This document shows positions 1 through 18,353 of a DNA stretch of 64,000 nt, piece by piece (within the stretch, counting starts at the first letter, position 1; the number at the start of each line of letters is the position of its first letter). The translations under genes and the position numbers were made by a program. The stretch lies in the IMG/VR virus record IMGVR_UViG_3300033073_001248, positions 21,687-85,686 of that record; one strand, written 5' to 3'. Source of the stretch: a virus (taxonomy: Duplodnaviria > Caudoviricetes). The notes below the pieces were generated by a model. It was not told the DNA's origin. It searched no databases and saw only the letters and a list, made by a program, of their open reading frames with translations.

Positions 1-474
1 CACAGTCCCAAAAATATAGGAATATTAAGAGTGTGGTTTACATTTTGGGACAATAATTGGCATGTTGATCCTGCTATAATAAAAGATATGTTAAGAGATC
101 CTTATCAAATGTTTATACACAAAAACTATTTCAAACTTTTAATAGCATGGATAACCTTATTGGTTTCTGGGTCTATGTTAACAGAATCTATGGTACCCAT
201 AATGATAGGATTTATTTTACCTTGTGCTACAACCAGTTTTTTCAGTGGAATTACAAATAGTCTAGGACACACCGTTGGGTATAGGAATTTTGAAACAAAC
301 GACTCTAGTACAAATCATCTTTTTATCCGTTGGTTATTTGTAATAGTGGGCCTACACAACAACCATCATTATAAACCAACAGCATGGAATTTTAATTTAT
401 TAAATCGGTGGTGGGAATTTGATCTTGACGCAGTGATTATAAAACACTTTTTTATAAAAAAATTATATGTATGA
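1..474 (+). CDS. Fatty-acid (delta-9-type) desaturase, 5'-truncated by window edge
   Basis: Frame is open from base 1 (HSPKNIGILRVWF...). Third His box GLHNNHH, SLGHTVGYRNF..D.STN and RWWEFDL match membrane desaturases; paralogous to 3395..4147. Confidence 0.85.
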   Translation, partial: HSPKNIGILRVWFTFWDNNWHVDPAIIKDMLRDPYQMFIHKNYFKLLIAWITLLVSGSMLTESMVPIMIGFILPCATTSFFSGITNSLGHTVGYRNFETNDSSTNHLFIRWLFVIVGLHNNHHYKPTAWNFNLLNRWWEFDLDAVIIKHFFIKKLYV

Positions 475-2717: not shown

Positions 2718-3398
2718 ATGAGTAAACCTTTGATTTTCTTGGGATCAAATTCAAACATAAGTCTTTTTTCGGAAACTGCTGAAGAAATGGGAATTCCAGT
2801 TTTCGGAATAATTGATGATCAGTATTACGGCAATACTCAATCAATTGCGGAAGTTCCTATAGTTGGATCTGAAAAAACATTCGACTTTGAAAATAATAAA
2901 AATCAATACCAATTTTTTGTAGCGTCTAGTGTTATTCCTAAATTCGAAGGTAGTAAAATTAGGCGTTTAGAATTTATCAACTTATGTAACAGACATCAAT
3001 TACCTTTAGCAACATTAAGAAATAAAATTAGTCAAGTAAGCAAGTCAGTGATTGTTCACCCCGGAACTTACATAGGTTTCTGTGCAGCAATCGGCCATGG
3101 CTGCGAATTAATGCCACATAGTCAAATACACACTCATGCTTTACTTGCTCATGACAGCATTTTAGGAATCAACAGTGTAATTGAAAGAACAGCGTTAGTA
3201 TCAGGTAATTGCGTTATAAAAGAAAATGCACACATAGGGTTTGGATCAGCAATTAGTAAGCTAGGCGGCGCAGTAATAGGAAAGAATGCAGTAATACACC
3301 CTCGATTAACTGTACTTAGAGATGTAGAAGACAATGAAATAGTTAGCCTAGCAGGTGATAACACAAGAAAAATTTATGGTAAGGTAGTAAGACAATGA
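2718..3398 (+). CDS. NeuD/PglD-like sugar O-acyltransferase (hexapeptide repeat)
   Basis: N-terminal LIFLGS / GIIDD Rossmann-like part followed by left-handed beta-helix repeats (VIVHPGTYIG..AAIGHG, VIGKNAVI). Confidence 0.8.
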   Translation: MSKPLIFLGSNSNISLFSETAEEMGIPVFGIIDDQYYGNTQSIAEVPIVGSEKTFDFENNKNQYQFFVASSVIPKFEGSKIRRLEFINLCNRHQLPLATLRNKISQVSKSVIVHPGTYIGFCAAIGHGCELMPHSQIHTHALLAHDSILGINSVIERTALVSGNCVIKENAHIGFGSAISKLGGAVIGKNAVIHPRLTVLRDVEDNEIVSLAGDNTRKIYGKVVRQ

Positions 3399-4147
3399 AA
3401 TTGCAAATTAATAACCTTTTTATATTTCAATGTATAACACATTTAAGTATCATTCCTATGATAATGTATGCTAATTGGTATCATTGGGTAATAGCGTTTA
3501 CAATTTATTTCCTAACTGGCAGTATAGGTATGAGCGGCACTTTTCACAGGTTGCTCAGTCATAAAAGTTATCAAGCACCAAAATGGTGGGAATATTTAGG
3601 AACAGTATTGGCATCTATTGGGGGAACAGGTAGCAGTATTGCGTGGTGTGCTGTACACAGAGAACATCATAGATTTACTGATACTGACCGTGATCCTCAT
3701 AGTCCATATACCAAAGGATTTCTAAAGGTACAGTTTTTTAGTATGTTTCATCAACCTAATGTAAGATATGTTCCTGATTTACTTCGCAGTAATTTTCATA
3801 TAAACATGCACAAATTCTATTGGTTGGTTCATGTCGTTTATGCGGCATGCTGTTATTTGATGGATCCTTTTGCTGTGGTCTATGCTTGGTTAATACCTAG
3901 TTTATTTTTATGGCATGCAGGCAGCAGTATCAATACTTTTAGTCACACACTGGGTTGGCAAGACTACGAAACTAAAGATACTAGCACTAACCATCCTGTA
4001 TTAGGTTTGTTAATGTGGGGCGAAGGTTGGCATAATAATCACCATGCTTTTCCTGCCGACTATAGATTTGGAAAAAAATGGTGGCAAATAGATGTTACAA
4101 GATACCTAATAGAATTAGTAAGGATTAGACAGAATGAAAAATCGTAA
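3395..4147 (+). CDS. Fatty-acid (acyl-CoA/acyl-lipid delta-9-type) desaturase
   Basis: Three His boxes HRLLSH, HREHH..D.DRDPHSP, GEGWHNNHH; hydrophobic segments. Confidence 0.92.
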   Translation: MKLQINNLFIFQCITHLSIIPMIMYANWYHWVIAFTIYFLTGSIGMSGTFHRLLSHKSYQAPKWWEYLGTVLASIGGTGSSIAWCAVHREHHRFTDTDRDPHSPYTKGFLKVQFFSMFHQPNVRYVPDLLRSNFHINMHKFYWLVHVVYAACCYLMDPFAVVYAWLIPSLFLWHAGSSINTFSHTLGWQDYETKDTSTNHPVLGLLMWGEGWHNNHHAFPADYRFGKKWWQIDVTRYLIELVRIRQNEKS

Positions 4148-4889
4148 GCAATTGCCCTGTTGGGGCTATTTAAAAGACTGGCAAATTGATATGCCTGCTT
4201 TGTTTGAGTATTTAAAAAATGTTAATTTGTTTAATTTTGACAGCTACAATGATATTAGGACTGATGCCAATGGGTCAATGAAGGACTTTGTTATTGCAAA
4301 TGAATACTGCCATACAAACTTCTTTAAAGAAGATGAAGCCAACATGGGCAACAGCGATAAGTTCAGGCATGTTATGTTAACAGAATTTGACAAGTCTAAA
4401 AGTCGTGGTGCCGTTGAATTCAAATACACTAACATTTATGAACGAACCAAACGATTGGATCCTACTAGTCCAAATTATTTGCCTGAAGCCGACGAATTAA
4501 ATTATACAGTTAGAACCAAATATGCTCAAGGGGAACTGGCAAAGATAATGGATATGTTTACCAGCAAAGTTACAAGAACAAGACTGGCTTATGTTGCAGG
4601 AAATCACGAACTAAAAGCTCATGTAGACTACGACCCAACTTATATCTGCAGATATCATATTCCTATTATTACAAATCCTAGTGTTAAGATGTACATGAAA
4701 CGCAACGGACAAACCCTAAGCTACCACATGCCTGCTGATGGCCGTGTATACTTTTTTAACACAGGTGTATTGCACTGGGTAGTTAATAAAAGCACTGAAG
4801 CAAGACTGCATCTCATAATTGATGTACATGGACAAAGTGAATTAGACAATTTAGTCAGTTTAGACGAGCAAGCTGAAATACTTGTGTAA
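4134..4889 (+). CDS. 2OG-Fe(II) oxygenase (aspartyl/asparaginyl beta-hydroxylase-like)
   Basis: HVD...RYHIPIITN...FFNTGVLHWVVN...RLHLIID facial-triad pattern. Confidence 0.75.
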   Translation: MKNRKQLPCWGYLKDWQIDMPALFEYLKNVNLFNFDSYNDIRTDANGSMKDFVIANEYCHTNFFKEDEANMGNSDKFRHVMLTEFDKSKSRGAVEFKYTNIYERTKRLDPTSPNYLPEADELNYTVRTKYAQGELAKIMDMFTSKVTRTRLAYVAGNHELKAHVDYDPTYICRYHIPIITNPSVKMYMKRNGQTLSYHMPADGRVYFFNTGVLHWVVNKSTEARLHLIIDVHGQSELDNLVSLDEQAEILV

Positions 4890-4913
4890 ATAATTTTAAT
4901 TCAATCAACTATT

Positions 4914-5882
4914 ATGAGCCTCAAACAACAAATTCTTACCTACAGTCGCCAAGAAACCATGACACCATTAAGTACTTGGTTTGATTCCAAATTGGAACAA
5001 CTTATTGATCAAGGTTTTTACTCAGATCTTAATACTTTAGAAGACACTGGTCAAAAGCTGGTACAAGGCTTAAAAGACTATGGCCAAAAATATAATATTA
5101 CAAATGTAGCCATCGGCATGAGTGGTGGCGTAGACAGTGCCCTAACTGCGGCACTGTTCAAACAAGCAGGTTGGACAGTAACTGGTGTAACTATGCCCAT
5201 ACATCAAAATCCTGCCGAAACTGAACGCGGCATTGAAGCTTGCCAAGCATTAAAATTAAACCATGTGCATGTAGATTTAACCAAACCCTACGATGACTTG
5301 GTCAAAAGTATTAGTGCTTGGGACAGTCAAATCAACAATGCTGGCCATGTTATCCGTAGAGCCAATCTTAGAGTAAGACTGCGTATGATGACTGTGTACA
5401 ATGTTGCCAGCAGTCTGCGTGGCTTGGTGGGCAGCACCGACAACTTCAGTGAGCTGGCTGCAGGCTTTTGGACACTGCATGGTGATGTAGGCGACCTTGC
5501 TCCAATCCAAAGTCTTAGTAAGAGTTGGGAAGTGCCCAAACTGGCTGAAGTTTATGGCGTGCCCGCCAGCACTGTGTTTGCTAAACCCACTGACGGCTTA
5601 GGTATCAGTGATGGGGACGAAGCACAGTTTGGTTTCAGTTACTTAGAATTTGATATTGTTTTGTTATTATTGTGTGCTAAATTAGACTTGCAGACAAGAC
5701 AGCAAGCATTAGAATATTTGCTGCCTGGCACAGCAGACATCGCCAAAGTTAATCGCATACTGGACCGCATTGCTGGCAGTACCTTTAAACGAACTAATCC
5801 ATACAATCTACCGCACCCACAGGACACAGATAGATATAATGGTTTACAAAATCTTGACACCGCGCTCTGGAAAAAAATATAA
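4914..5882 (+). CDS. nadE: NH3-dependent NAD+ synthetase
   Basis: GMSGGVDS PP-loop, RANLRVRLRM, STDNFSE, GFWTLHGD, APIQSLSK, KPTDGL, DEAQFGFSY. Confidence 0.9.
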   Translation: MSLKQQILTYSRQETMTPLSTWFDSKLEQLIDQGFYSDLNTLEDTGQKLVQGLKDYGQKYNITNVAIGMSGGVDSALTAALFKQAGWTVTGVTMPIHQNPAETERGIEACQALKLNHVHVDLTKPYDDLVKSISAWDSQINNAGHVIRRANLRVRLRMMTVYNVASSLRGLVGSTDNFSELAAGFWTLHGDVGDLAPIQSLSKSWEVPKLAEVYGVPASTVFAKPTDGLGISDGDEAQFGFSYLEFDIVLLLLCAKLDLQTRQQALEYLLPGTADIAKVNRILDRIAGSTFKRTNPYNLPHPQDTDRYNGLQNLDTALWKKI

Positions 5883-5887
5883 TAGTA

Positions 5888-5920: not shown

Positions 5921-6361
5921 ATGATTTACACAATTAAAGACACACTAGACCCATTTGCCAATTATCTCAAGGACGATCCTGTGCGTCCCCATATTCCTTA
6001 TGAACAGAGATTTGGCAGTAATAGGGCAGTGCTGGCCCTTACTGACGACAACACAGTCAAGGCTGTTGTCTGTACCAGATTGTGTAGCACAATTCCCACT
6101 AGCGAAGAAGAACTATTAACAGATAACAGCGCCAATCCCGATACCGCTGTGTTTTATACTATTTGGAGTTACGCACCTGGAGCTGGTCAGCAACTTATTA
6201 GAGAAGGCTTGGCTAAGTTTCGTCAGGAAAATCCCAACATCAAGCGATTTGTGACCTTGAGCCCACCTACAGAACTGGCAAAAAAGTTTCATTTACGAAA
6301 TGGTGCTCGTATATTCAGAGTTAACGATACCACTGTTAATTATGAATATATAAACATATAA
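5921..6361 (+). CDS. Miniature malonyl-CoA decarboxylase-like (GNAT-fold) protein
   Basis: TAVFYTIWS, QLI, NIKRFVTLSP and KFHLRNGARIFRVN match the malonyl-CoA decarboxylase motifs (AIFYSIS, FxTLSP, FHLxNGA) in order, within 146 aa. Confidence 0.6.
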   Translation: MIYTIKDTLDPFANYLKDDPVRPHIPYEQRFGSNRAVLALTDDNTVKAVVCTRLCSTIPTSEEELLTDNSANPDTAVFYTIWSYAPGAGQQLIREGLAKFRQENPNIKRFVTLSPPTELAKKFHLRNGARIFRVNDTTVNYEYINI

Positions 6362-6372
6362 TCAATAAATTT

Positions 6373-7143
6373 ATGAAAATCAAAAACTATGTGATAGGCG
6401 CTCACCGCCGAATCAACAGCACCCAATGGGCATGGAAAGACACCAGCGCCGAAGGCGATATCTACAAAACTTACAGTGAAATGTACAGGCTCAGTCGCAG
6501 CAGTATGTACCATTTCCTTGAAGGCGAATGGGAAGAACTTGTATGGACGGAAGATATTGATAACATTGGTCAAGCAATGAAGTTAAATTGGACCAATGTC
6601 TACAATCTTTGGCACAGTGAACCCTGCAATATATTAGCAGTTGGGCCTGATGTGCAAATAGTTAAACCCTTAAAAATGTTTGGTGAGTTTGACGAATTTA
6701 GAATGTTTAATTGGACAGACCCAAAGTTCTATCATGATGCTAATCCATGGGGCATTGATTTACCCAATTACTTTAACGGTGACTTCAAATACTATCCGCA
6801 CACCATGAGCAAAGATGTGTGGGCCATGGGTATGAATATGGCCAAAGATTGGGCAGGCAACGACACTACTCCTGAAACTTGGGGCAACGAACAGCTAATT
6901 GAAAATGCTATGTTTTGGAGTCAAGGTATCCGATTTGAAGATGCACACAGGCCAGATTTGTTTTATCAAGCTCACGGCCTGCCCTGGGTAGATATTGAAC
7001 AAATGGATCAGTGGAACAACTACAGCTATCAAGATGCCAAAGTTATTCATTGGCACAGCAGTAGACACAGTCCTACCAAATTAAATTGTATGCAACAGGT
7101 AAACGACATGCTTGAAATTCCTGTGCATTCGTGTAAAATATAA
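6373..7143 (+). CDS. Divergent GT-A (GT8-like) glycosyltransferase, putative
   Basis: ILAVGPDVQIVKP (DxD position), YFNGDF, WGNEQLIEN, KVIHWH follow the GT8 motif order; first gene of the sugar cluster. Confidence 0.45.
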   Translation: MKIKNYVIGAHRRINSTQWAWKDTSAEGDIYKTYSEMYRLSRSSMYHFLEGEWEELVWTEDIDNIGQAMKLNWTNVYNLWHSEPCNILAVGPDVQIVKPLKMFGEFDEFRMFNWTDPKFYHDANPWGIDLPNYFNGDFKYYPHTMSKDVWAMGMNMAKDWAGNDTTPETWGNEQLIENAMFWSQGIRFEDAHRPDLFYQAHGLPWVDIEQMDQWNNYSYQDAKVIHWHSSRHSPTKLNCMQQVNDMLEIPVHSCKI

Positions 7144-7159
7144 CATTCAAGGATACACT

Positions 7160-8269
7160 ATGACCCAAATTAGTCAAAGGGATAAAGAACTATTTGAAAA
7201 TTTATTTGTTCTAGAAGTAGCAAACAACCACTTAGGCGATGTTGATCGCGGCCTTAAAATCATTAGAGATCACGGCACAGTAGCAAGATATAACAATGTC
7301 AAGTTTGCTCTAAAACTACAGTTTAGGGACAGCGCAGAATTTATTCATCCTGAGTTTCAAGGTAATACTGAAAATAGATATATTAAAAAAACTGAAGCTA
7401 CTTATCTTACCAAAGAGCAGTACGCAAGACTGATTAAAGAAGTTAAAGCAGTAAATGGCATTCCAATGAGCACACCTTTTGACGAAAAGAGTGTAGACTT
7501 ATGCGTTGAATTTGACATGCCCATTATTAAGATTGCCAGCAGCGATATGAATGACTGGCCTTTGATTAATAAAATTGCTGATACTAAACGAGCTGTTATT
7601 GTCAGTACAGGCGGAGCCAGTGAAAAAGATCTAGATGATCTTGTTGTTTACTTTGAACGAAGAAACATTCCCTTGGCCATTAATCATTGTGTTAGTTTGT
7701 ACCCCAGTGAAGATGATGAACTGCATTTGGATCAAATTGATTACCTTCGTGATCGTTATCCTGGCCATGTTATTGGTCTCAGCACACATGAATATCACGA
7801 TTGGTCCAGCAGTATGCTGATCAGCTATGGCAAAGGCGCAAGAACTTGGGAACGACATGTAGACATTAATTATGGCGGTGTTGCTGTCAGTGCTTATAAC
7901 AGTTTACCAGAACAGTGTGACACTTGGTACAAGGCTTTTCACAAAGCACAGGAAATGTGTGGTGGTTACAGCAACAGTCGCAGAGTTATTAGCCGTCGTG
8001 AAACGGAATATCTAGATGCACTGGTGCGTGGTGCTTATGCTCGCAGAGATTTAGAGCCAGGTTATGTATTGACCAAAGAAAGTTTTGCCCGAGACTTTTA
8101 TCTCAGTATTCCTTTGCGTAAAGGTCAATTAAGCTGTAGAGAAGTGCTGGATGGCGAAAAACTAATTCAAGGTATCAAAGCAGACCAAGCATTGACCATT
8201 GACCATATCGACGGTCCTTACAACGAAAATCCTGCACTTAAAAATCTTATTCTTAACAGAGGTCTATAA
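7160..8269 (+). CDS. NeuB/SpsE-family PEP-dependent nonulosonate-synthase-like enzyme with C-terminal SAF-like domain
   Basis: LEVANNH.G, KLQFR, STPFD, KIASSD, IVSTGG, HCVSLYP, GLSTHE, ERHV. Start moved to the ATG at 7160 behind AAGGA. Confidence 0.88.
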   Translation: MTQISQRDKELFENLFVLEVANNHLGDVDRGLKIIRDHGTVARYNNVKFALKLQFRDSAEFIHPEFQGNTENRYIKKTEATYLTKEQYARLIKEVKAVNGIPMSTPFDEKSVDLCVEFDMPIIKIASSDMNDWPLINKIADTKRAVIVSTGGASEKDLDDLVVYFERRNIPLAINHCVSLYPSEDDELHLDQIDYLRDRYPGHVIGLSTHEYHDWSSSMLISYGKGARTWERHVDINYGGVAVSAYNSLPEQCDTWYKAFHKAQEMCGGYSNSRRVISRRETEYLDALVRGAYARRDLEPGYVLTKESFARDFYLSIPLRKGQLSCREVLDGEKLIQGIKADQALTIDHIDGPYNENPALKNLILNRGL

Positions 8270-10122
8270 TGGCTAGAATGCGTGTAGCCGATTACATTGC
8301 TGAAAGATGTGTGGCAGCAGGTGCTGAACATGTATTTTTAGTTACTGGCGGTGGAGCCATGCATCTTAATGATGCTTTTGGTCGCAATAAAAAGCTAACC
8401 CCAGTATGTTTTCATCATGAGCAAGCAGCTGCCATGGCTGCTGAAAGTTACTATAGGACCACCAACAAATTGGCAGTACTTAATGTAACTACTGGTCCTG
8501 GAGGTATTAATGCATTGAATGGTGTTTACGGTGCGTATGTAGACAGCATTGGCATGATTGTGGTGTCGGGGCAAGTTAAAAACGAAACGCACTATAAGAA
8601 TTATGATTTGCCCATGCGCCAGCTTGGGGATCAAGAAGTAGACATTGTCAGCATGGCTCGGCCTGTTGTAAAATACGCTACTACACTGCGAGATCCTCAA
8701 ATGGTTGCTGAAGTAATGGACAAAGCACTGTTTCTTGCTACACACGGAAGGCCGGGACCTGTTTGGGTCGATGTACCTGTCGATATCAGCAGCACTATGA
8801 TTGAAACTGATGACTTACAGCCGTGGAAAGGTTCTATCAAAAAGTTAGCCGCTGACAAAGATGTTACAGCTAACACTAAACTTGAACTTCAAACACTGGT
8901 GCAGGCTAAAAGTTATAGAGAAATTTCACACATATTGGAAAAACTTAAGAAAGCCAAAAGACCTGTGTTGTTTGCCGGCGCTGGCGTTAGACTGAGTGGC
9001 CGGCATGATGAATTTTTGAAATTAGTCGGTCGTCTTAATATTCCCACTGTAACTGGTTGGAACGCACATGACGCACTGCCCAATGACAATGCTTGTTATG
9101 CAGGCCGTCCTGGCACAGTAGGAGATCGCGCTGGTAACTTTACAGTGCAGAATGCAGACCTATTAATTGTACTGGGAAGTAGACTAAACATTAGACAAGT
9201 TAGCTATAACTATAAAAACTTTGCTAGTCGTGCTTACAAAATTCATGTTGACATAGATCGTGCAGAATTATTTAAACCCAGTTTGTTTACTGATTATAAA
9301 GTACAGGCTGACTTGGCGGAATTTATACCTGAATTCTTAGCCGCACTGAGCAAATATAAACCTAAGAAATCACACTTAGAATATCTTGATTGGTGCCAAC
9401 AGCGAGTAGCAAAGTATCCAGTGGTTGTACCTGAATACAAGCATGGCGAAGAACATGTAAACCCTTACTTGTTTGTAAGAGACATGTATCAACAGTTAAA
9501 TGACAAAGATATCATGGTTACTGGCAATGGCAGTGCCTGCGTTATCAGTTTTCAAACTGCTGACATCAAACAGGGTCAAAGACTGTTTACCAATTCAGGT
9601 GATGCCAGTATGGGTTACGATTTACCCGCCGCAATTGGTGCTTGTTTAGCAAACAATAAACAACGAGTAATTTGTCTAGCAGGTGACGGCAGTCTTATGA
9701 TGAACATACAAGAACTGCAAACTCTTGTTGGTTATAAACTGCCTGTTAAAGTTATTATTTTGAATAACTATGGTTACCTAAGTATTAAACAGACACAGCA
9801 CAACTATTTCAGCGACAATGTTTTTGGTACCAGCCCAGACGATGGCGTTACTATGCCTGACTTTACAGAAGTTGCTAAAGGCTTTAAAATACCTGCACTG
9901 AAAGTAAAAACATGGGCAGACTGGCAATCAAAAGCAGTGCAGTTGGCTATGAAATATGATGGCCCTGCTGTTATTGAAGTAATGTGTGATCCCAATCAAG
10001 TATTTGCACCTAAGTTGGCAGCAAAGAAATTAGCCGACGGTACAATGTTGGCGCCTAGTTTAGAAATGATGAGTCCTTTTCTTTCTGACGAAGAAATGGC
10101 AGAAAACACGATCAAAGATTAA
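8269..10122 (+). CDS. ThDP-dependent enzyme, acetolactate-synthase-like (YerE-type candidate)
   Basis: HHEQAAAMAAE, TTGPGGIN, GRPGPVWVDVP, ThDP motif GDGSLMMNIQEL...ILNN. Confidence 0.9.
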   Translation: MARMRVADYIAERCVAAGAEHVFLVTGGGAMHLNDAFGRNKKLTPVCFHHEQAAAMAAESYYRTTNKLAVLNVTTGPGGINALNGVYGAYVDSIGMIVVSGQVKNETHYKNYDLPMRQLGDQEVDIVSMARPVVKYATTLRDPQMVAEVMDKALFLATHGRPGPVWVDVPVDISSTMIETDDLQPWKGSIKKLAADKDVTANTKLELQTLVQAKSYREISHILEKLKKAKRPVLFAGAGVRLSGRHDEFLKLVGRLNIPTVTGWNAHDALPNDNACYAGRPGTVGDRAGNFTVQNADLLIVLGSRLNIRQVSYNYKNFASRAYKIHVDIDRAELFKPSLFTDYKVQADLAEFIPEFLAALSKYKPKKSHLEYLDWCQQRVAKYPVVVPEYKHGEEHVNPYLFVRDMYQQLNDKDIMVTGNGSACVISFQTADIKQGQRLFTNSGDASMGYDLPAAIGACLANNKQRVICLAGDGSLMMNIQELQTLVGYKLPVKVIILNNYGYLSIKQTQHNYFSDNVFGTSPDDGVTMPDFTEVAKGFKIPALKVKTWADWQSKAVQLAMKYDGPAVIEVMCDPNQVFAPKLAAKKLADGTMLAPSLEMMSPFLSDEEMAENTIKD

Positions 10123-10123
10123 T

Positions 10124-10789
10124 ATGAAACGAGTTTTAGTATTAGGCGGCACTGGAGACATTGGCCAAGCTATTGTGCAGGCCTTTGACAGGGACACAGT
10201 CGTTGCAGCAGGTCATGAGATATGTGACCTCAGCAGTGCTGGCCATGTTGAGTCGTTTATCAAAGCAAATGCGCCTTTTGACACCATTGTACACTGCGCT
10301 GGTTTTAATAATCCTAAAACATTTGATTCGTTAACCACCGAAGAAATTGAAAAGAACTTACAGATTAATCTACTGGGATTTTTGCCTATTATTCAAAACA
10401 ACATTGACTACTGGAAAAAATCCGGGAATGGTAAACTAGTAATAATCAGCAGTTTATACGGACAGTTTGGTCGACGAGGTCGTTTGCCTTACAGTGTCAG
10501 CAAACATGGTCTAATTGGCGTAACCAAGACCTTGGCTATCGAACTAGCGCATATAGGAGTTATGGTCAATGCTGTAAGTCCTGGCTATATTGCTACTAAG
10601 ATGACTACAAAAAATAACACAGCTGCTACTATTGAAAGACTAGTACAGGGCATACCCGCAGGCAGGCTAGGTCGTCCCGAGGAAATTGCAAGCTTAGTCA
10701 AATTTTTAGCCAGCGACCAAAACACTTACATAACAGGACAAGACATTGCAGTAGATGGTGGGTATACTGCTGGAGGTTTTCAACAATAA
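10124..10789 (+). CDS. Short-chain dehydrogenase/reductase (SDR)
   Basis: GGTGDIG, HCAG, catalytic S...YSVSK, VNAVSPG, ITGQDIAVDGG. Confidence 0.9.
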   Translation: MKRVLVLGGTGDIGQAIVQAFDRDTVVAAGHEICDLSSAGHVESFIKANAPFDTIVHCAGFNNPKTFDSLTTEEIEKNLQINLLGFLPIIQNNIDYWKKSGNGKLVIISSLYGQFGRRGRLPYSVSKHGLIGVTKTLAIELAHIGVMVNAVSPGYIATKMTTKNNTAATIERLVQGIPAGRLGRPEEIASLVKFLASDQNTYITGQDIAVDGGYTAGGFQQ

Positions 10790-11943
10790 TGTTTAGCACA
10801 AATTTTAAAATACAAAAAACAGAATTTAGTTTTACCATCGATCCCAAAGTCAGTGCTTTTACTGTGGCCAGTATTCCTAGACCATATGATGTAAAATTTG
10901 TTGACAGTGATGGTTTCGCTTGGCTTGCTGACACAATAAACTCAACCAAAGGTGCGCTATTATTGATTGATAGCAATGTTCGTAATCAGCTAATGGCTCA
11001 TTTGAGTTTTACAGCGCCCACTTATCTTGTTGAAGCTGTGGAAGAAAACAAAAGCATTAACACTGTGCTTAAAATTTGCGATTGGTTACTGGAACAACGA
11101 GCCAATCGTGGTAGCCACTTGTATGTAGTGGGCGGCGGTATTGTACAAGATTTGGGTGCTTTTTCCGGTTATATGTACAAGCGAGGCATTCCGTGGACAC
11201 TGGTACCTACTACACTATTAAGTCAAGCAGACAGTGGGCTTGGTGGTAAAACTGCGGTAAACTATGGTTCAAGTAAAAATGTATTAGGCTTATTCAGTGC
11301 GCCCCGACAAGTATTAGTAGATGCAGAGTTTACTAGGACACTAACAGACTTTGACTTTTTAAGTGGCGGTGGTGAAATACTAAGACTATTAACCACAGGC
11401 GGTGCAAGTTCTTTTGAATTTCTTGAGCAGACCGTTGATCAGTTTGTTGCTCGTGACGCTGAAGCTATCCAACAATTAACTGCATCCAGTTTGTTTGTCA
11501 AACAATCAATTGTAGAAGCAGATGAATTTGAAATAGATCTTCGTCGCAGTATGAACTATGGGCATAGCATTGGACATGCCATTGAAGCATTAAGCAACTA
11601 CAAGATTCCACATGGTCAAGGTGTTGCACTAGGAATCTTTGTAGAGAATATGATTTCTGTTAATAGAAATTTGCTAGACAGTACTGTAGCAGACAGAATT
11701 TTCCGCACAGGACGCAAATTAATCAGCGATTCAGTTTGGCAAGAGTTCATCAATTTGGATGTTAGCAAACTGTTGCCCTATTTGTCCAACGATAAAAAAG
11801 CCCAGGGCACAACACTGCCAATCGCTACGTTGGTCAGCCTAGGCAACATGCAATTCTTAGGATTGGAATTGAACGCAGACGGATTATTTGAAATTGAACA
11901 AGCAGTCAATAAGGTAAAACAAATTGAAAATATTGTTAGTTGA
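10789..11943 (+). CDS. 3-dehydroquinate-synthase-like sugar-phosphate cyclase
   Basis: GGGIVQDLGAF, PTTLLSQADSGLGGKTAVN, KNVLGLF, NYGHSIGHAIE, PHGQGV. Confidence 0.85.
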   Translation: MFSTNFKIQKTEFSFTIDPKVSAFTVASIPRPYDVKFVDSDGFAWLADTINSTKGALLLIDSNVRNQLMAHLSFTAPTYLVEAVEENKSINTVLKICDWLLEQRANRGSHLYVVGGGIVQDLGAFSGYMYKRGIPWTLVPTTLLSQADSGLGGKTAVNYGSSKNVLGLFSAPRQVLVDAEFTRTLTDFDFLSGGGEILRLLTTGGASSFEFLEQTVDQFVARDAEAIQQLTASSLFVKQSIVEADEFEIDLRRSMNYGHSIGHAIEALSNYKIPHGQGVALGIFVENMISVNRNLLDSTVADRIFRTGRKLISDSVWQEFINLDVSKLLPYLSNDKKAQGTTLPIATLVSLGNMQFLGLELNADGLFEIEQAVNKVKQIENIVS

Positions 11944-13117
11944 TTTTGGTGCAACAAATATTAAATCTGTAGTCTATGACACAGACAGTGCCGCAGTAAT
12001 TGACTTTGAAAGTGTTGCCAGTCCCAGTCAAACAAATCACGACACTGCACCGGCATTTACAGTACCTGTTAACTTGTACAGACAAGCCCTAGACATTACT
12101 GCTGGTAAACTGTTGGCCATGCATAATGATGTAGACAGCATTTATATCTGTTCGGAAATGCATGGCTTTACCATGGACAATCAATACATTAGTTGGAAAG
12201 ATAGTAGAGCTGATCTAAAAAAGATAGACAAGTTAGCCTTTTACAATGAAACAGGCTTAATTACACGCCCAGGTATTGCTTACGCTACCTTAAAAACACT
12301 AGAACCAAAAAATAAAAGAATTGGCACTCTTGTAGATGCTGTGTTAGACTCTAGTATAGGAAATGACATAACATTGACTGCCAGTCAAGGCTTTGTAAAC
12401 AAGTATACACAGTTACTCAGTACTAAAATTATAAACGAATTTGAAGGTCTATCAGTTGTTCCTTTGGCCCAAGGCTGTATAGGTACATACAGAAACAAAA
12501 TGGTATATGGTGGTCTTGGAGATCTTCAAGCAGCTATTCTGGGCGCAGGCTTGGGTATTACCGCAGATATGGTCATTAACCTGGGCACAGGCAGTCAAGT
12601 TGCTGTACTTACAGACAGCTTAGATCAAGGAGATCTAAGACCCTATGTCAACGGTACTTGGGTTAGAGTTCTAAGTCATATTCCATCAGGCCGAGCACTG
12701 AATGTAATTGCTGAACTAGTTGAACCATCGAGGTTTTGGTCAATTTGGCAAAATTTAAACGCAGAAGAAATTTTAACCAGCGATTATCAACAGGTTGATT
12801 TGAATTTATTTGCCAGTGCTTGGCAATATACTAATTGTAGTGGCTTTATTAGACTTCAAGAAAGTCAAACAGTACAACACTTTGTAGCCGCAGTTGCAGC
12901 TGCATGGGTCAGACAGTATGTTATTGCTATGCACAGACTTGATTGTAAAACAAATCAAACTCGGGTAGCGGTGTCCGGGGGATTGGCCCACAAGAGCCCA
13001 TTCCTTATAGACTGTTTAACTACACTAAGTCCTGGTAGAACTTATTTTCAACCTAAACTAGCCACAGGTGAAGAAACACTAGACGGTCTCATAAAAATTC
13101 ATGCTGACAAAAAATGA
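11924..13117 (+). CDS. FGGY-family carbohydrate kinase (sedoheptulokinase-like)
   Basis: VDFGATNIK, CSEMHG, SWKD.R, GDLQAA, NLGTGSQ, SGG; TTG start. Confidence 0.7.
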   Translation: MKILLVDFGATNIKSVVYDTDSAAVIDFESVASPSQTNHDTAPAFTVPVNLYRQALDITAGKLLAMHNDVDSIYICSEMHGFTMDNQYISWKDSRADLKKIDKLAFYNETGLITRPGIAYATLKTLEPKNKRIGTLVDAVLDSSIGNDITLTASQGFVNKYTQLLSTKIINEFEGLSVVPLAQGCIGTYRNKMVYGGLGDLQAAILGAGLGITADMVINLGTGSQVAVLTDSLDQGDLRPYVNGTWVRVLSHIPSGRALNVIAELVEPSRFWSIWQNLNAEEILTSDYQQVDLNLFASAWQYTNCSGFIRLQESQTVQHFVAAVAAAWVRQYVIAMHRLDCKTNQTRVAVSGGLAHKSPFLIDCLTTLSPGRTYFQPKLATGEETLDGLIKIHADKK

Positions 13118-13932
13118 TTGAAATTATAAACAACAACAGACAAATTTTAATAAGCGATCAGCATTCACTTTATTTGGAAGAAATTAAAGCAGGATTTGAT
13201 CATTATTTTGACAGTGTTGACTGCAGCACTTCAGCAGGAATTTCAACAGTTGATTTCAGCAGTCCTGGTTGGCATACAGTAAAAGGCTATAACAAGCACA
13301 AAATCTTCTTTCCTTTTGTTGCCGAACCACTGGCAACCACACAACAATATATTGACTTACTAGAACTGACATCAGGCGATACTATTCTTGACTTGGGTGC
13401 TTATTCTGGTTTGGCATCTATAATGTTTAAAGAAACAGTAGGTAAGACTGGGCATGTAATAGCAGTAGAAGCAGACCCCATTAATCATACAGCCTGTGCA
13501 ACCAATTTTGCTGAATATGAAAAAGTAACAGGACTAACAATTGATTTAATATCTGCTGCTGTTTGGAATCATTCTAATGGACTTGCTTTTACATCCGATG
13601 GATCCATGGGTTCTGCTGCACGAGAATTACTGCATGGAAAAAAGACTTCTATGCTCGTAAATTCTATAACCATTCCAGACATAGCTAAAAGATTTAACTT
13701 AGAAAAAGTTGACTGTATCAAATGCGATGTAGAAGGAGCAGAAAGAGTAGTGTTTGATGATCTACAATGGTTTGAATCTTTTAAACCCAAATTGATTATT
13801 GAGGTTCATCAAACAGTAGATGCTGTTGCAGGCATTGAAAAATTAAAGACAATTGGTTATCAATTTGAATCACATGAACAAATTGGATGCGAGTATCCGT
13901 TGATGTTTGGAATTTATTCGAGTACATTATGA
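13114..13932 (+). CDS. FkbM-family SAM-dependent methyltransferase
   Basis: ILDLGAYSG, VIAVEAD, IKCDVEGAE, LIIEVH. Confidence 0.85.
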   Translation: MIEIINNNRQILISDQHSLYLEEIKAGFDHYFDSVDCSTSAGISTVDFSSPGWHTVKGYNKHKIFFPFVAEPLATTQQYIDLLELTSGDTILDLGAYSGLASIMFKETVGKTGHVIAVEADPINHTACATNFAEYEKVTGLTIDLISAAVWNHSNGLAFTSDGSMGSAARELLHGKKTSMLVNSITIPDIAKRFNLEKVDCIKCDVEGAERVVFDDLQWFESFKPKLIIEVHQTVDAVAGIEKLKTIGYQFESHEQIGCEYPLMFGIYSSTL

Positions 13933-14720
13933 AAATAGCAGTATTAGGCGCAAATGGATTTGTTGGCAGTAATTTGGCCAAACATCTTGCACACAAGCAT
14001 CAAGTAGTGCCAGTTACAAGAAAAACTCTAGACCTATTAGACTGTGTCAAAGTCGCAAAGTTTTTGACTAAAGAAAAATTCGATGTTGTGATTATGGCAG
14101 CAGCCACTATGACTGACAATCAATCATTGGCAGATACAAGAAACAACTTAGGTATTTTTATGAACTTTTATAATAACAGTGACTTGTTTAAAAAGTTTAT
14201 CAACTTGGGCAGTGGAGCAGAATACGACAAATCGCAGAACTTAGACTGTGTCGAAGAAACAGAAATTTTTACAAGATTGCCACAGGACAGTTATGGATTT
14301 GGGCAAAATCTTAAAAGTAGACTCAGCGTAGAAAAACCAGGATTTTACAATCTTAGAATTTTTAACTGTTTTGGTAAAGGTGAGATCCCTACCAGATTGT
14401 TTCCAAAATTGTTAAAGACCAAAACAAAATTTGAAATTACTGATGATAGATATTTTGATTATTTCAGCATTCAAGATTTGTGTACAGTGGTTGAAAGTTT
14501 TGTAGAAAATAATCATGTTGTTTACGATGTAAACTGTGTATACGAAAATAAAATTAAAATAAGCCAAGCTGCTAAATTATTTGCTGATATTAAAAAATTA
14601 CGACAAGAAATTGTAGTGGTCAGTACCAGCAAGAATAATTATACTGGTAGCCACGAAAATTTATATTCACTGGGAATCGATTTGCAGGGGCTTGAACAGG
14701 GATTTAAAGATTATGTATAA
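13929..14720 (+). CDS. NAD-dependent epimerase/dehydratase (extended SDR)
   Basis: IAVLGANGFVG, GSGAEY, LRIFNCFG. The YxxxK position reads YGFGQ (Lys absent). Start set to ATG 13929. Confidence 0.8.
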   Translation: MKIAVLGANGFVGSNLAKHLAHKHQVVPVTRKTLDLLDCVKVAKFLTKEKFDVVIMAAATMTDNQSLADTRNNLGIFMNFYNNSDLFKKFINLGSGAEYDKSQNLDCVEETEIFTRLPQDSYGFGQNLKSRLSVEKPGFYNLRIFNCFGKGEIPTRLFPKLLKTKTKFEITDDRYFDYFSIQDLCTVVESFVENNHVVYDVNCVYENKIKISQAAKLFADIKKLRQEIVVVSTSKNNYTGSHENLYSLGIDLQGLEQGFKDYV

Positions 14721-15495
14721 TATTGATAGCTGTCCTGCATGCGGTTCTGACAACATTACCAAACTGCCAGCATACATGCATGAATTTGTAGCTTGGAGAG
14801 TAACGGGCTATAGACCCCATGGACATTTGCCCATTAAAGGCGTACACTGTTTGAGTTGTCAATTTACCTGCAGCGACAGCAGATTAGATGACAGGGAAGA
14901 ACAATTACTGTACGATGATTACCGGGGTGCCAGTTATAACCAACAAAGAATTGCATGCGAACCTACATATGAAAATTATTTAAATAATTTTGACAGCAAC
15001 GAATACATGCAGATAAGACGATTTGGTATTATGGAATTAATAAACAAATATGTTGATGCTGCAAATATTCAAACTGTCTTAGACTACGGTGGTAATAAAG
15101 GCGAACATATCCCCCAAGTTTTCAATCATGCCAAAAGATATGTTTACGATATCAGCAATGTTGGCTTGTTGCCGGGAGTAGAATTATTTGATGTAAATTC
15201 AACTGAGGTTATGGATTTTATCATGTGCTGTCATGTACTAGAACATAAATCCGAACCCGCAGAACTAATTGAGCAAATCAAGAAATACGCAGATAACAAC
15301 ACTTGGTTTTATATTGAAGTGCCTGACAACGAAATTTATTCTCTGCCCGGTGCTGTATTTCACGAACATATAAATTCCTTTACTTACAAATCAATGGTAT
15401 CACTTTTGAGTAGACACGGAATAGAAGTGGTAGAAATAATATCAACATCTGCTAACAATGAACATATAATGTGCGTATTGGGAAAACTTAAATGA
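14713..15495 (+). CDS. Class I SAM methyltransferase with N-terminal Zn-binding CxxC pairs
   Basis: CPACGS...CLSCQ, VLDYGGNKG, CCHVLEH, IEVP. Start set to ATG 14713. Confidence 0.75.
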   Translation: MYNIDSCPACGSDNITKLPAYMHEFVAWRVTGYRPHGHLPIKGVHCLSCQFTCSDSRLDDREEQLLYDDYRGASYNQQRIACEPTYENYLNNFDSNEYMQIRRFGIMELINKYVDAANIQTVLDYGGNKGEHIPQVFNHAKRYVYDISNVGLLPGVELFDVNSTEVMDFIMCCHVLEHKSEPAELIEQIKKYADNNTWFYIEVPDNEIYSLPGAVFHEHINSFTYKSMVSLLSRHGIEVVEIISTSANNEHIMCVLGKLK

Positions 15496-16445
15496 CAAAG
15501 AAAATAGTTTATGTAACAGGCTGTTTGGGTTTTATGGGCAGTCATGTCACTGAAGCTTGTTTAGCCAAAGGTTGGTATGTAATTGGTGTAGATAACTGTA
15601 CCTATGCAGCCAATACAGGTTGGATTGACAGTTGGGACATGCGTTATCCCAATCAGTTTAATTTTATCAAATCGGACATCAATGACTTAGATAGGCTATA
15701 TGACTGCGATTACATCATTAACATGGCTGCAGAAACTCATGTAGACAACAGCATTGAAGACAGCGACAGATTTGTACACAGCAATATAAATGGCGTACAC
15801 AACATTCTTAAATTGATTAACAAAAAGAAACATCGTAGACCTGTGCTGTTACATTTTAGCACAGATGAAGTCTACGGAGATATTGAACAAGGCAGTCACA
15901 CAGAAACGGACTTGTTAAAGCCCAGTAACCCCTACAGTGCTACCAAAGCAGCCGCAGACCATTTGGTAACCAGCTGGGGCAGAACTTATGGAGTTCCTTA
16001 TGTTATTGTGCGCCCCACCAACAACTATGGTATCGGGCAGTATGTGGAAAAACTTATTCCCAAGACTGTTAAGTATCTTACAGTGGGTCGTAGGATAGAT
16101 CTGCACAACAATGGCACTCCTGTGCGTACTTGGTTGTTTGCTGGTGATACTGCACAGGCTGTTATTACTATTATCGAATCTGGCGTGCAAAATGAAATAT
16201 TCAATATCAGCGGTAATTATGAAACACAAAACATTGTAGTGGTTAAAAAGATCCTGGATTTGATCATGCAGGATAAAAACTATAACATCGAAGACCACAT
16301 CGAACACTTGAACAGAATTGGGCAGGATGTTCGATACAGCATAGATGACACAAAACTAAAACAATTGGGATGGCAACCTCAAGCAGAGTTTGACAAAGAG
16401 CTGGAAAAAATAGTACAATACTATCAAGAAAACTTTATTTGGTAA
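15492..16445 (+). CDS. rfbB: NDP-glucose 4,6-dehydratase (RmlB/RfbB-like)
   Basis: TGCLGFMG, MAAETHVD.SI, STDEVYG, YSATK, NNYG, R.GQD.RY. Confidence 0.88.
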   Translation: MTKKIVYVTGCLGFMGSHVTEACLAKGWYVIGVDNCTYAANTGWIDSWDMRYPNQFNFIKSDINDLDRLYDCDYIINMAAETHVDNSIEDSDRFVHSNINGVHNILKLINKKKHRRPVLLHFSTDEVYGDIEQGSHTETDLLKPSNPYSATKAAADHLVTSWGRTYGVPYVIVRPTNNYGIGQYVEKLIPKTVKYLTVGRRIDLHNNGTPVRTWLFAGDTAQAVITIIESGVQNEIFNISGNYETQNIVVVKKILDLIMQDKNYNIEDHIEHLNRIGQDVRYSIDDTKLKQLGWQPQAEFDKELEKIVQYYQENFIW

Positions 16446-16448
16446 CAC

Positions 16449-17768
16449 ATGGAACAGATCCTACAACAAGTTAGAGAATATATTCAACGCAAGCAACAGA
16501 CAAAAACTTGGCGCGAGGGTAAAGACTTTGTCAACTATGCTGGTGCATACTATGATGAAAGTGAATATGTAGCTGGCGTGGAAAGCCTGCTAAAAGGTTG
16601 GTTGGCCATGGGCGATGCTGGCCTTAAATTTGAACGAGAGTTTCCTAAGCAGTTTGGCAAGACAAAAGGCATTGTTACAAACAGTGGCAGTTCTAGTAAT
16701 TTGCTAATGATGGCCAGTTTGACCAGCAAGCGTGGTTATAACTTGCCTAAAGGTACGAAAGTATTGATGCCTATTGCAGGATTTCCTACCACATTAAATC
16801 CTACACTGCAAATGGGTTTTCAGCCCGTGTTTGTAGACATTGAGCTGGATACATTGAATCTTAACTTAGATCAAGTTGAAGCAGCCCTAAAACAACAGCC
16901 TGACATTCGTGTTATTACTTTTGCTCATGTACTGGGCAATCCACCTAACATGTATAGGCTTATGGAATTGGTAAAACGGTATGATTTAATTTTATTGGAA
17001 GACTGCTGTGATGCACTGGGCAGTACCTACGATGGCGTACCTCTTGGATCCTTTGGTCTAATGAGTAGTTGCAGTTTTTATCCTGCACACCATATGACCA
17101 TGGGTGAAGGCGGTTATGTAGCTACAAATGACGCACAACAAGATATCATTCTTCGCAGTTTCCGTGAATGGGGTCGTGGCTGTTATTGCGTAGGGCCCGA
17201 AGCTAACAAGTTAAAGTGCGGCACTTGTGGCAAGCGTTTTAATAATTGGATTCCTACTCTGCCAGATGAAATCTTTGACCACAAATATGTCTACGATGAA
17301 ATTGGCTACAACCTAAAACCAATTGAATTACAGTGTGCCATGGGCTTAGAACAGTTAAAGAAACTGCCTGAAATTCATGAACTGCGAAAGCGTAACTATG
17401 CACTGCTGTTTGACATTTATAAAGAATATGAAGAATTTTTCCACTTACCTCGAGCACAGGCCAAATCGGATCCATCATGGTTTGCTTTTCCCTTAACAAT
17501 AAGGCAGGGCGCACCATTTAGTCGAAGTGATATAGTAGACTATTTGGAAGAAAACCTTATTCAGACTCGTCCGTATTTTGCTGGTAATATTATGTTACAA
17601 CCAGCATACAGCCACTTGATGGATCCGATGGTAGCCAAGAATAATTTCCCTATGGCTACCCATGCTATGACACACACTTATTTCCATGGCACAAGTCCTG
17701 TTATTACGCCTGAACAGATTGCTTATATTGGAAAAATTGTTCGGGGCTTTATGAGTTTGTATGTGTAA
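16449..17768 (+). CDS. rfbH: CDP-4-keto-6-deoxyglucose 3-dehydrase (E1, RfbH/DdhC)
   Basis: EDCCDALG; SFYPAHHMTMGEGG has His where DegT-type aminotransferases have Lys; Fe-S motif GRGCYC...CGTCGKRF; FDHKY.Y.EIGYNLK. Confidence 0.92.
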   Translation: MEQILQQVREYIQRKQQTKTWREGKDFVNYAGAYYDESEYVAGVESLLKGWLAMGDAGLKFEREFPKQFGKTKGIVTNSGSSSNLLMMASLTSKRGYNLPKGTKVLMPIAGFPTTLNPTLQMGFQPVFVDIELDTLNLNLDQVEAALKQQPDIRVITFAHVLGNPPNMYRLMELVKRYDLILLEDCCDALGSTYDGVPLGSFGLMSSCSFYPAHHMTMGEGGYVATNDAQQDIILRSFREWGRGCYCVGPEANKLKCGTCGKRFNNWIPTLPDEIFDHKYVYDEIGYNLKPIELQCAMGLEQLKKLPEIHELRKRNYALLFDIYKEYEEFFHLPRAQAKSDPSWFAFPLTIRQGAPFSRSDIVDYLEENLIQTRPYFAGNIMLQPAYSHLMDPMVAKNNFPMATHAMTHTYFHGTSPVITPEQIAYIGKIVRGFMSLYV

Positions 17769-17776: not shown

Positions 17777-18145
17777 ATGAGCTGGCATGATTTTGTTAGA
17801 GCAAGTTATGACTTGGTTATGGAAAGTGAAGGTCTTAGTGACACTTACTTAGACAACGAAGTTGAAACTTATGTTGTACACTTGTTGGCCAAAAACTTTG
17901 TTAAACTTAACATAAACGAAGAAGCCATTGCCATACAAATCCTCAGCGGCAAAGATTACCAACACATAGGTGACGAGTGTTTGCTGATCAACAGTTATCC
18001 TCTCAAACGCAGACGCTGGCCCACTGACACTTACTATAGAGACATGGGCACCATAGCATATGGTATGGCCAATATAACTGTCATGGAATCAAATTTTGAT
18101 AACGCCAGCCGTGTATTACACAATGTGTTTTGCCGAATAGGTTGA
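17777..18145 (+). CDS. Hypothetical protein
   Basis: 122-aa ORF directly after TGTAAATA; normal coding composition. Confidence 0.7.
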   Translation: MSWHDFVRASYDLVMESEGLSDTYLDNEVETYVVHLLAKNFVKLNINEEAIAIQILSGKDYQHIGDECLLINSYPLKRRRWPTDTYYRDMGTIAYGMANITVMESNFDNASRVLHNVFCRIG

Positions 18146-18197: not shown

Positions 18198-18353
18198 ATG
18201 TTCGAATCTATCGAAATCCGAAAAGCCGCAAATGGCTTTATCCTTGTTGTCCACACCGAGGACGAAGACAAGGAATATGTCTACGACACCAGTCGTAAAC
18301 TCATGCGAGTGATTAAGCAATATATTGACGCAGACAACAAATCTGAAGAGTAA
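18198..18353 (+). CDS. Small hypothetical protein (51 aa, not in ORF track)
   Basis: GGAG RBS then MFESIEIRKAANGFILVVHTEDEDKEYVYDTSRKLMRVIKQYIDADNKSEE*. Confidence 0.7.
   Translation: MFESIEIRKAANGFILVVHTEDEDKEYVYDTSRKLMRVIKQYIDADNKSEE

Follow-up and report, generated by a model that had tools for sequence, protein, structure and literature searches.

A giant freshwater phage carries an operon of eleven genes that probably makes a nucleoside diphosphate (NDP)-3,6-dideoxyhexose with a long polyhydroxyalkyl branch at C4, of the class of erwiniose, caryophyllose and gastriose; the sugar would then be methylated and given to a GT8-like glycosyltransferase. The operon lies at positions 6373–17768, on the + strand, of the 64,000-nucleotide window analysed here, which comprises bases 21687–85686 of the 85.7-kb IMG/VR virus record IMGVR_UViG_3300033073_001248 (CheckV completeness about 16 %). 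It belongs to an island in which related large phages keep the genes for the sugar core and exchange those for the donor of the side chain. A phage-borne island with swapped donor modules is new here. As a more tentative proposal, which we regard as possible rather than probable, a homologue of 3-dehydroquinate synthase (DHQS), recruited along with a NeuB-like synthase and a kinase of the FGGY family, provides the donor with its terminal methyl group by phosphorylation, elimination and reduction, with no cyclisation, and a large family of freshwater jumbo phages exchanges donor modules in a conserved island to diversify a glycan of the virion, the host envelope or DNA.

Results

Nearly all genes of the window lie on the + strand, and among the PHROG matches are a structural protein of the virion, a DnaB-like helicase, DNA helicases and ribonucleotide reductase (large subunit). 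Within the operon, the open reading frames (ORFs) abut or overlap by 1–46 nt, or are separated by gaps of a few bases. An initial annotation had proposed a tightly coupled operon of eleven genes with predicted functions, and we found every ORF in place on the + strand and the families borne out, for most of the genes by Pfam and NCBIfam domains. Two proteins lacked a Pfam match of their own. The product of the first gene, g1, was assigned through its AlphaFold model and Foldseek, and a 397-aa protein through its homologue family.

The acceptor sugar would be made by the products of the last two genes. The gene at 15492–16445 (+) encodes an RmlB-like NDP-glucose 4,6-dehydratase of dTDP type, which scored 297 bits with TIGR01181 (below its cut-off of 365), 73 bits with the CDP-type and 48 bits with the GDP model; these scores suggest a dTDP specificity without assigning it. 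The gene at 16449–17768 (+) encodes RfbH, which exceeded the cut-off of NF011936 (449 versus 423 bits) and matched the Yersinia E1 enzyme (PDB 3bcx) with an E value of 1e-98. In the alignment with 3bcx, the His of the FYPAHH motif, in place of the Schiff-base Lys, and the Fe-S Cys residues of the two proteins coincide. By this His and Cys motif, RfbH is an E1-type NDP-4-keto-6-deoxyhexose 3-dehydrase dependent on pyridoxamine 5'-phosphate and a [2Fe-2S] cluster, as the initial annotation had stated. The phage protein differs from Yersinia E1 in its dTDP-type dehydratase partner, in having no E3 reductase nearby on the fragment, and in an insert of five residues, including an additional Cys, in the Fe-S loop (window 17160–17235, RfbH residues ~240–263), which is present in all phage-type E1 proteins. 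The loop reads CYCVGPEANKLKCGTCG in phage-type E1, compared with CYCxxGxDN-TC in bacterial E1. The insert may be linked to working without a dedicated E3.

The gene at 8269–10122 (+) encodes a thiamine diphosphate (ThDP)-dependent enzyme with three TPP_enzyme domains and a canonical GDG motif. Its best PDB matches were the JanthE structures 8rph, 8rpi and 8rpj (389 bits, E 3e-115, residues 3–608), while the best acetolactate synthase reached 224 bits. JanthE from Janthinobacterium sp. HH01 (8rph) is a characterised YerE-like aldehyde-ketone carboligase (PMC12188165) and the nearest solved relative of the phage enzyme, which it matches over the full length. The two differ in the cofactor motif, which is CDG in JanthE and GDG in the phage enzyme. 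The phage enzyme groups with the YerE-like carboligases, apart from acetolactate synthases, and is predicted to add a keto acid to a ketone. Its gene shares the operon with the RmlB-like and E1 genes, and the same linkage occurs in both bacterial and phage loci.

Four further genes are candidates for making the keto acid. The first encodes a NeuB-family synthase that condenses phosphoenolpyruvate (PEP) and is the predicted maker of a 3-deoxy-2-ulosonic acid, an alpha-keto acid (7160–8269, +; PF03102, 120 bits). Its ORF opens at TTG 7112; ATG 7160 is the likelier start. With the equivalog models of the PseI, NeuB and LegI class the protein scored about 100 bits against cut-offs of 340–400, and it probably represents a distinct NeuB subfamily (57–89 % identity across loci). 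Downstream of the ThDP gene, a FabG-like classical short-chain dehydrogenase/reductase (SDR), the predicted ketoreductase of the donor side chain (10124–10789, +; adh_short_C2, 147 bits), is followed by the DHQS-like gene (10789–11943, +) and the gene of the 397-aa protein (11924–13117, +).

The DHQS-like protein, a predicted NAD-dependent phosphate-eliminating enzyme, has both DHQ_synthase domains (PF01761 and PF24621, N and C) but scored below both NCBIfam cut-offs (TIGR04425, 285 bits with a cut-off of 400; aroB TIGR01357, 249 bits with a cut-off of 305). Among PDB entries, true DHQS matched with an E value of 5e-38, and the synthases of 2-epi-5-epi-valiolone (EEVS), 2-deoxy-scyllo-inosose (DOIS) and desmethyl-4-deoxygadusol (DDGS) with 1e-21 to 1e-23. 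The invariant columns of our alignment A1 (D148, K154, N164, E196, K238, R252, N256, H259, H263, H275 and K336/K337) align with DHQS. Of the aligned catalytic and ligand positions, one shows a Lys-to-Arg change and the rest are kept. The kept positions correspond to those that in DHQS (PDB 1dqs) bind the metal and the phosphate and carboxylate of 3-deoxy-D-arabino-heptulosonate 7-phosphate (DAHP). In its domains and ligand positions the protein resembles AroB and the sugar-phosphate cyclases, being nearer DHQS than EEVS, DOIS or DDGS; it is set apart from AroB by the low model scores, the Lys-to-Arg change and its place inside a sugar-branching cassette. A cyclitol pathway of the ebo or EEVS type was considered and rejected, as the partner genes differ and the protein is nearer DHQS.

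The 397-aa protein is a divergent FGGY-family sugar or sugar-acid kinase, 25–47 % identical to members of its family, in which FGGY_N was detected in 14 of 21 members and FGGY_C in two. Searched against the PDB, the family profile found gluconate kinase first (1e-17), then xylulokinase (2e-15), and also glycerol kinase. The proposal of a heptose-type kinase with sedoheptulose as input, made in the initial annotation, was not supported: the closest matches of the kinase profile are gluconate kinase and xylulokinase, and true DHQS is by a wide margin nearer the DHQS-like protein than the sedoheptulose-7-phosphate cyclases are. Because the ligand positions of DHQS are kept and the kinase profile is nearest to a sugar-acid kinase, a ulosonate phosphate fits as the intermediate between the two enzymes.

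The remaining genes are predicted to finish and transfer the sugar. A short extended SDR of 277 aa (13887–14720, +; Epimerase/RmlD-like, PF01370, 52 bits) is predicted to be YerF-like and to reduce the carbonyl of the branch. Two methyltransferase genes lie on either side of it, one of the FkbM family (13114–13932, +; PF05050; TIGR01444, 80 bits) and one of the Methyltransf_23 (MT23) family (14692–15495, +; PF13489, 49 bits), the latter with an N-terminal CxxC...CxxC zinc-ribbon-like motif. No FkbM homologue was found in any other locus compared, and among these loci the gene is peculiar to the island of the phage studied here. The g1 protein (6373–7143, +) is the predicted transferase for the final sugar. 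Its AlphaFold (AF2) model, with a mean confidence (pLDDT) of 95.4, found glycogenin and other GT8 enzymes as top Foldseek matches (probability 1.0, TM ~0.54, glycogenin E 5e-7), and one of 37 homologues weakly matched PF03407. The model points to a soluble, GT8-like (glycogenin-like) retaining enzyme with a GT-A fold, for which glycosyl transfer is predicted. The GT8 family includes protein-glycosylating enzymes as well as enzymes of the lipopolysaccharide core. By our estimate, the most likely acceptor is a virion protein, though with less than an even chance, followed at a little distance by a host envelope glycan; some other acceptor is less likely than these, and DNA is an improbable one.

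Neighbourhoods of the cassette genes were collected by an alignment-seeded scan of metagenome contigs (80 loci) with ORF calling and BLAST, in which counts are limited by contig ends, and by a single-protein scan of genome contigs (4 loci). The DHQS-like gene was found in 78 of the 80 loci, the FabG-like SDR in 66, the FGGY kinase in 64, the NeuB-like synthase in 48 and the ThDP enzyme in 45. The SDR, DHQS-like and FGGY genes were nearly always adjacent in that order, with the SDR directly upstream of the DHQS-like gene. Neighbouring genes, counted on the longer contigs, included glucose-1-phosphate cytidylyltransferase (20 loci; TIGR02623, 471 bits), CDP-glucose 4,6-dehydratase (TIGR02622, 502 bits) and RfbH-like proteins (20 loci), and all 17 RfbH-like sequences examined were E1-type with the His and Cys residues kept. 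The dehydratase is of CDP type in these bacterial cassette loci and of dTDP type in the phages. A HAD phosphatase (25 loci), GT2 (18 loci), GtrA (nine loci) and an MT23 methyltransferase (eight bacterial loci) were further neighbours, along with a recurrent extra extended SDR and recurrent large membrane proteins; one locus (L032) had an E3-like Fer2-FNR reductase. The longer bacterial loci can be read as a self-contained unit in which a CDP-dideoxy-keto sugar would be made, branched and moved by a Gtr-type route.

Two loci from bacterial genomes were instructive in other ways. At a locus of a Treponema metagenome-assembled genome, an HMGL-like (BphI/ErwI-type) aldolase gene follows the kinase gene where others have NeuB (the upstream flank is cut), which fits NeuB doing the aldolase's job, namely making a 3-deoxy-2-keto acid. 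On a Leptonemataceae chromosome, only the ThDP, SDR and DHQS-like genes are present (L007:7475–11140); they are 55–70 % identical to those of the phage and sit among genes for cysteine-rich repeat proteins, ~2.5 kb from an integrase gene. A tree of ThDP enzymes unites the phage-type sequences in a single clade (support 100/100), which is nested within bacterial diversity and includes the Leptonemataceae sequence. The tree suggests that the cassette is of bacterial origin; the Leptonemataceae copy could be a phage-to-bacterium transfer or a remnant.

The composition of the island in phages was determined from 79 viral loci. The DHQS-like gene occurred in three distinct viral contigs only, and the g1 family has 189 relatives in IMG/VR. 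The island has a conserved order: a NadE-like gene, a mini malonyl-CoA-decarboxylase-like (mini-MCD) gene, g1, a variable part, RmlB, E1 and the gene of a 122-aa protein (p122), followed by that of an AAA protein. Phage-type E1 was present in at least 31 of the 79 loci (73–96 % identity), and p122 stood at the island end in seven sister loci (38–90 % identity). The NadE-like gene adjoins a g1-family glycosyltransferase gene in 46 of the viral loci and the mini-MCD gene does so in 23. As this linkage persists even at ~33 % identity, it might be functional rather than a matter of synteny.

The variable part took several forms. The commonest, in 11–15 loci (L104 among them), combines a class I/II aminotransferase with a split ThDP enzyme. 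In L128 (7789–12180) an HpcH/HpaI aldolase is found with the DHQS-like enzyme, an SDR and a ThDP enzyme but no kinase; this pairing of aldolase and DHQS-like genes in a locus that lacks the kinase would fit a phosphorylated aldehyde as substrate. L097 has a complete DctP/DctQ/DctM tripartite ATP-independent periplasmic (TRAP) transporter (3020–5721) next to a ThDP enzyme and a NeuB-like synthase, and this phage may import its keto-acid or aldose precursor via the transporter. The variable part of L130 lacks a ThDP enzyme, and the set of NeuB, ThDP, SDR, DHQS-like and FGGY genes is shared by the phage studied here, L010 and L005.

Conservation differed between the two halves of the predicted pathway. 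In the closest relative, L096, the flanking genes and those for RmlB (89 %), E1 (96 %) and p122 (90 %) are 73–97 % identical overall; the divergent genes are g1 (61 %), the short SDR (38 %) and that of the ThDP enzyme (34–39 %, and split). Across the sister phages, the short SDR, ThDP and donor genes show 34–58 % identity, compared with 62–96 % for RmlB and E1 (62–89 % for RmlB alone). The acceptor-making genes thus stay constant, while donor genes, ligase, reductase and transferase co-vary, which is expected if all of them handle one variable side chain. The transferase is also exchangeable, since some phage-type loci have a GT34-like (GMA12/MNN10 family) transferase in place of g1 (L005:3684–4340, L012:2417–3184 and L013:2–787), and no sequence similarity to g1 was detected in these three proteins. 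An island with its sugar core kept and its donor swapped suggests that the final glycan may be under diversifying pressure.

Proposed pathway

Erwiniose, caryophyllose and gastriose share one biosynthetic scheme. A functionalised alpha-keto acid is supplied by an aldolase, for which a transaminase could in principle stand in; a YerE-like enzyme couples this acid to CDP-4-keto-3,6-dideoxyglucose, and the branch is completed by a YerF-like reductase (Steitz et al. 2022, PMC9306805). Ropiose and aurantose were included in a 2025 review, which also mentions >200 predicted clusters (PMC12247030). YerE itself uses pyruvate (PMC9306805, PMC12247030). The caryophyllose of M. marinum is 3,6-dideoxy-4-C-(D-altro-1,3,4,5-tetrahydroxyhexyl)-D-xylo-hexose, with an acyclic chain and a terminal methyl group (PMC5706390).

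For the phage, we propose that the RmlB-like enzyme turns host NDP-glucose, probably dTDP-glucose, into a 4-keto-6-deoxy sugar (step 1), from which RfbH would remove the C3 hydroxyl with electrons from a host reductase, giving an NDP-4-keto-3,6-dideoxyhexose (step 2). In parallel, the NeuB-like synthase would join PEP and a small aldose to a 3-deoxy-2-ulosonic acid (step 3), and the FGGY kinase would phosphorylate the terminal hydroxyl of this acid (step 4). The DHQS-like enzyme would then carry out an NAD-dependent transient oxidation and eliminate the phosphate (step 5), and the FabG-like SDR would reduce the resulting ketone to yield an omega-deoxy keto acid (step 6). The YerE-like ThDP enzyme would decarboxylate the keto acid and add the remainder to the C4 ketone of the acceptor (step 7), after which the short extended SDR would reduce the branch carbonyl, as YerF does (step 8). 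Methylation by the FkbM and MT23 enzymes (step 9) and transfer of the sugar to an acceptor by g1 (step 10) would complete the pathway. The order of the donor steps (NeuB or aldolase, kinase where needed, DHQS-like enzyme, SDR, ThDP enzyme) is suggested by the nearness to true DHQS and its ligand positions, the kinase profile and the gene content of L128. Host NDP-glucose and a host reductase are assumed as supply. General cellular reductases suffice for the TDP-sugar 3-dehydrase SpnQ.

Sequence and fold establish the protein families, the E1 signature and the affinity to YerE-like enzymes, and the comparison of loci establishes the linkage of the cassette with E1 and the swapping of donors. 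At the level of families, 4,6-dehydration, E1-type 3-deoxygenation, YerE-like ligation and GT-A transfer are supported. The core of the initial annotation, which had combined a 4,6-dehydratase and E1 with YerE-type C4 branching and a longer, caryophyllose-like donor, is favoured by the affinity to JanthE, the E1 linkage and the donor swaps in sister phages. An aminotransferase or an HpaI aldolase beside a ThDP enzyme, as found in those phages, is what the scheme of Steitz et al. (PMC9306805) leads one to expect.

The weakest link is the non-cyclising role of the DHQS-like enzyme. Ring closure after DHQS-type phosphate elimination is facile and the normal course of the reaction, and we know of no sequence feature that separates a cyclising from a non-cyclising outcome in enzymes of this type. 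A carbocyclic branch, in which the DHQS-like enzyme completes the aldol step and a ring of cyclohexane or cyclopentane forms the end of the side chain or the whole of it, is the alternative that we take most seriously, although we consider it rather unlikely. The enzyme is nearest to true, cyclising DHQS with nearly all ligand positions kept, and carbocyclic sugars are known from bacteria, namely caryose and bradyrhizose. Cyclisation may take place on the free ulosonate phosphate, or after ligation, with the branch ketone as the C2 of DAHP. The former, however, would destroy the alpha-keto acid that the ThDP enzyme needs, and the latter would require both the kinase and a closed DHQS-type site, with its conserved carboxylate-binding residues, to take a bulky NDP-sugar. 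Moreover, the structurally known products (erwiniose, caryophyllose and gastriose) are acyclic with a terminal methyl group. Since the ThDP enzyme depends on an alpha-keto acid, and since a methyl group terminates the known products, our preferred reading is that the phosphate is eliminated, no ring closes and the ketone is then reduced. Of the longer or cyclised branch foreseen in the initial annotation, the longer donor stands, and a carbocycle is possible but not favoured.

Several observations weigh against the proposed long-chain pathway. A non-cyclising DHQS homologue would be new enzymology, and some predicted YerE-like enzymes took no ketones in vitro (PMC12247030). The substrates, the products and the order of steps 3–6 are what we infer from the genes, and the chemistry as a whole has the same basis. 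As the initial annotation had noted for the window, nucleotidyltransferase and E3 reductase genes are missing: neither an NTP_transferase domain nor an E3 partner (Fer2, FNR-type or NAD_binding_1 domain) was detected in the 85.7-kb contig, which covers ~16 % of the genome. The HAD phosphatase of 25 cassette loci is absent from this phage and has no clear place in the scheme, and neither NeuB nor E1 genes lie within 10 kb of the Leptonemataceae locus.

It is also conceivable, though we think it quite improbable, that the operon has two products: the ThDP enzyme would use pyruvate, like YerE, for a yersiniose-type sugar with a C2 branch, and the NeuB-like, kinase, DHQS-like and SDR proteins would make a separate quinate- or dehydroquinate-like acid. 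Taken as a series, NeuB, the kinase and the DHQS-like enzyme are indeed easily read as a by-pass that leads to an analogue of dehydroquinate. The five genes, however, are linked over ~80 loci in which neither a ligase nor an acyltransferase is a conserved neighbour; sister phages also place other keto-acid-forming genes next to a ThDP enzyme in exchange for the donor module, which is sensible only if the module feeds that enzyme.

The operon is intact, is under selection and probably works. The block recurs at 99–100 % protein identity in a second IMG/VR contig, obtained from a different sample, and near-identical DNA (at least half of the sampled words) is present in eight freshwater runs from at least six studies; no RNA dataset was listed for the stretch. 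An independent 23.6-kb metagenome contig covers 4900–19309 with 79 substitutions in 14.4 kb (~99.5 % identity) and no indel inside the operon. The 30 best-supported variants comprise 23 synonymous and seven non-synonymous changes. A recently captured, decaying or non-functional host O-antigen fragment, which the initial annotation had allowed for if relatives lacked the block, is therefore rejected, as the block recurs intact in independent contigs and most variants are synonymous. The nesting of the phage ThDP clade in bacterial diversity does indicate that the cassette came from bacteria, but all ORFs are intact and tightly packed, and diverged copies (40–83 % amino acid identity) are kept in other viral contigs, so that we give this explanation hardly any weight. 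Equally little weight goes to the idea that ordinary metabolism has been misread (the ThDP enzyme as an acetolactate synthase, RfbH as an aminotransferase and the DHQS-like protein as a phage AroB), for although acetolactate synthase and aroB models are the top NCBIfam names, all are below cut-off, JanthE beats every acetolactate synthase by 165 bits, RfbH has His for Lys together with the Fe-S cysteines, and the gene context is that of a sugar pathway.

Flanking genes and transcription

The left border of the island is formed by the NadE-like NAD synthetase gene (4914–5882, +), with matches to PF02540 (138 bits) and TIGR00552 (136 bits, above the cut-off of 63.65). A shewanellose-type pyruvyl-amide branch made by NadE was rejected, given that the protein scores as an NAD synthetase and that its gene generally adjoins the island. 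A consensus scan located a promoter-like site at 5854–5883 (+) that consists of TTGACA, 18 nt and TATAAT, agrees with the sigma-70 consensus in 12 of 12 positions and is the candidate operon promoter; the total number of promoter-like sites in the region is not above chance. The first gene after this site encodes the mini-MCD protein (146 aa; 5921–6361, +; PF05292, E 5e-9). Downstream of rfbH, the gene of p122 (17777–18145, +), a conserved phage hypothetical protein, closes the island; p122 has no Pfam match, and a protein atlas search with it returned phage hypotheticals only. The same scan placed a terminator-like hairpin at 18222–18239 (+), after the last gene. The transcription unit probably extends from the sigma-70 site to this hairpin and would include the mini-MCD gene and the 122-aa gene.

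Upstream of the island we observed an unusual metabolic run with three B12/radical-SAM-like proteins, a TauD dioxygenase, two small FA_desaturase-like proteins, a NeuD-like hexapeptide acyltransferase and an AspH/LpxO-like hydroxylase (window 1–474, 467–2551, 2718–3398, 3395–4147 and 4134–4889; G000 contig 1463–2989 of L003; L002:11426–12949 and L002:7681–8592). NeuD, Des2 and AspH genes are again found beside the island in six sister phages.

Discussion

In this study we describe a phage operon that resembles the known pathways of acyl-branched 3,6-dideoxyhexoses, namely those of yersiniose (YerE/YerF), erwiniose (ErwE/F/I/J), caryophyllose (MMAR_2331–2333) and gastriose (MygE/F/I) (PMC9306805). 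Like them, it combines a 4,6-dehydratase and E1 for the acceptor with a YerE-like ThDP enzyme beside a reductase and a keto-acid-making gene, and has a glycosyltransferase in the cluster. In contrast to these pathways, the phage has NeuB-like, FGGY, DHQS-like and SDR donor genes in place of a pyruvate aldolase. The dehydratase is of dTDP rather than CDP type, neither a nucleotidyltransferase nor an E3 is encoded on the fragment, there are two methyltransferases, and the carrier is a phage.

Polymorphic clusters of sugar-making and glycosyltransferase genes in jumbo phages and cyanophages have been proposed to remodel the host surface (Iyer et al. 2021, PMC7824862). In the sections of that article available to us, the clusters resemble the island described here in that the gene sets differ between related large phages. 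They consist of epimerases or dehydratases, PfkB kinases, nucleotidyltransferases and glycosyltransferases, and those sections contain no E1, ThDP-branching or NeuB/DHQS module (PMC7824862). A megablast search of the block against GenBank phages gave no match. Our literature search, which did not extend to the survey of >200 YerE-like clusters, found no paper on E1- and ThDP-based sugar branching in phages, on this gene combination or on RfbH in large phages.

Caryophyllose, erwiniose and other dideoxy sugars with long-chain branches are rare surface antigens, and how their side chains are made is understood only in part. The compact enzyme set of the locus may provide a second route to the keto-acid donor, one that needs no aldolase, and the DHQS fold may here have a new reaction outcome, for which L128 is a useful natural comparison. 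The variants of the island amount to a natural 'mix-and-match' set for the specificity of YerE-like enzymes, which are of interest in biocatalysis as a source of chiral tertiary alcohols. For the phages themselves, the swapping of modules in the island suggests that the glycan is under selection, which may act through receptor masking, virion shielding or the evasion of host defences.

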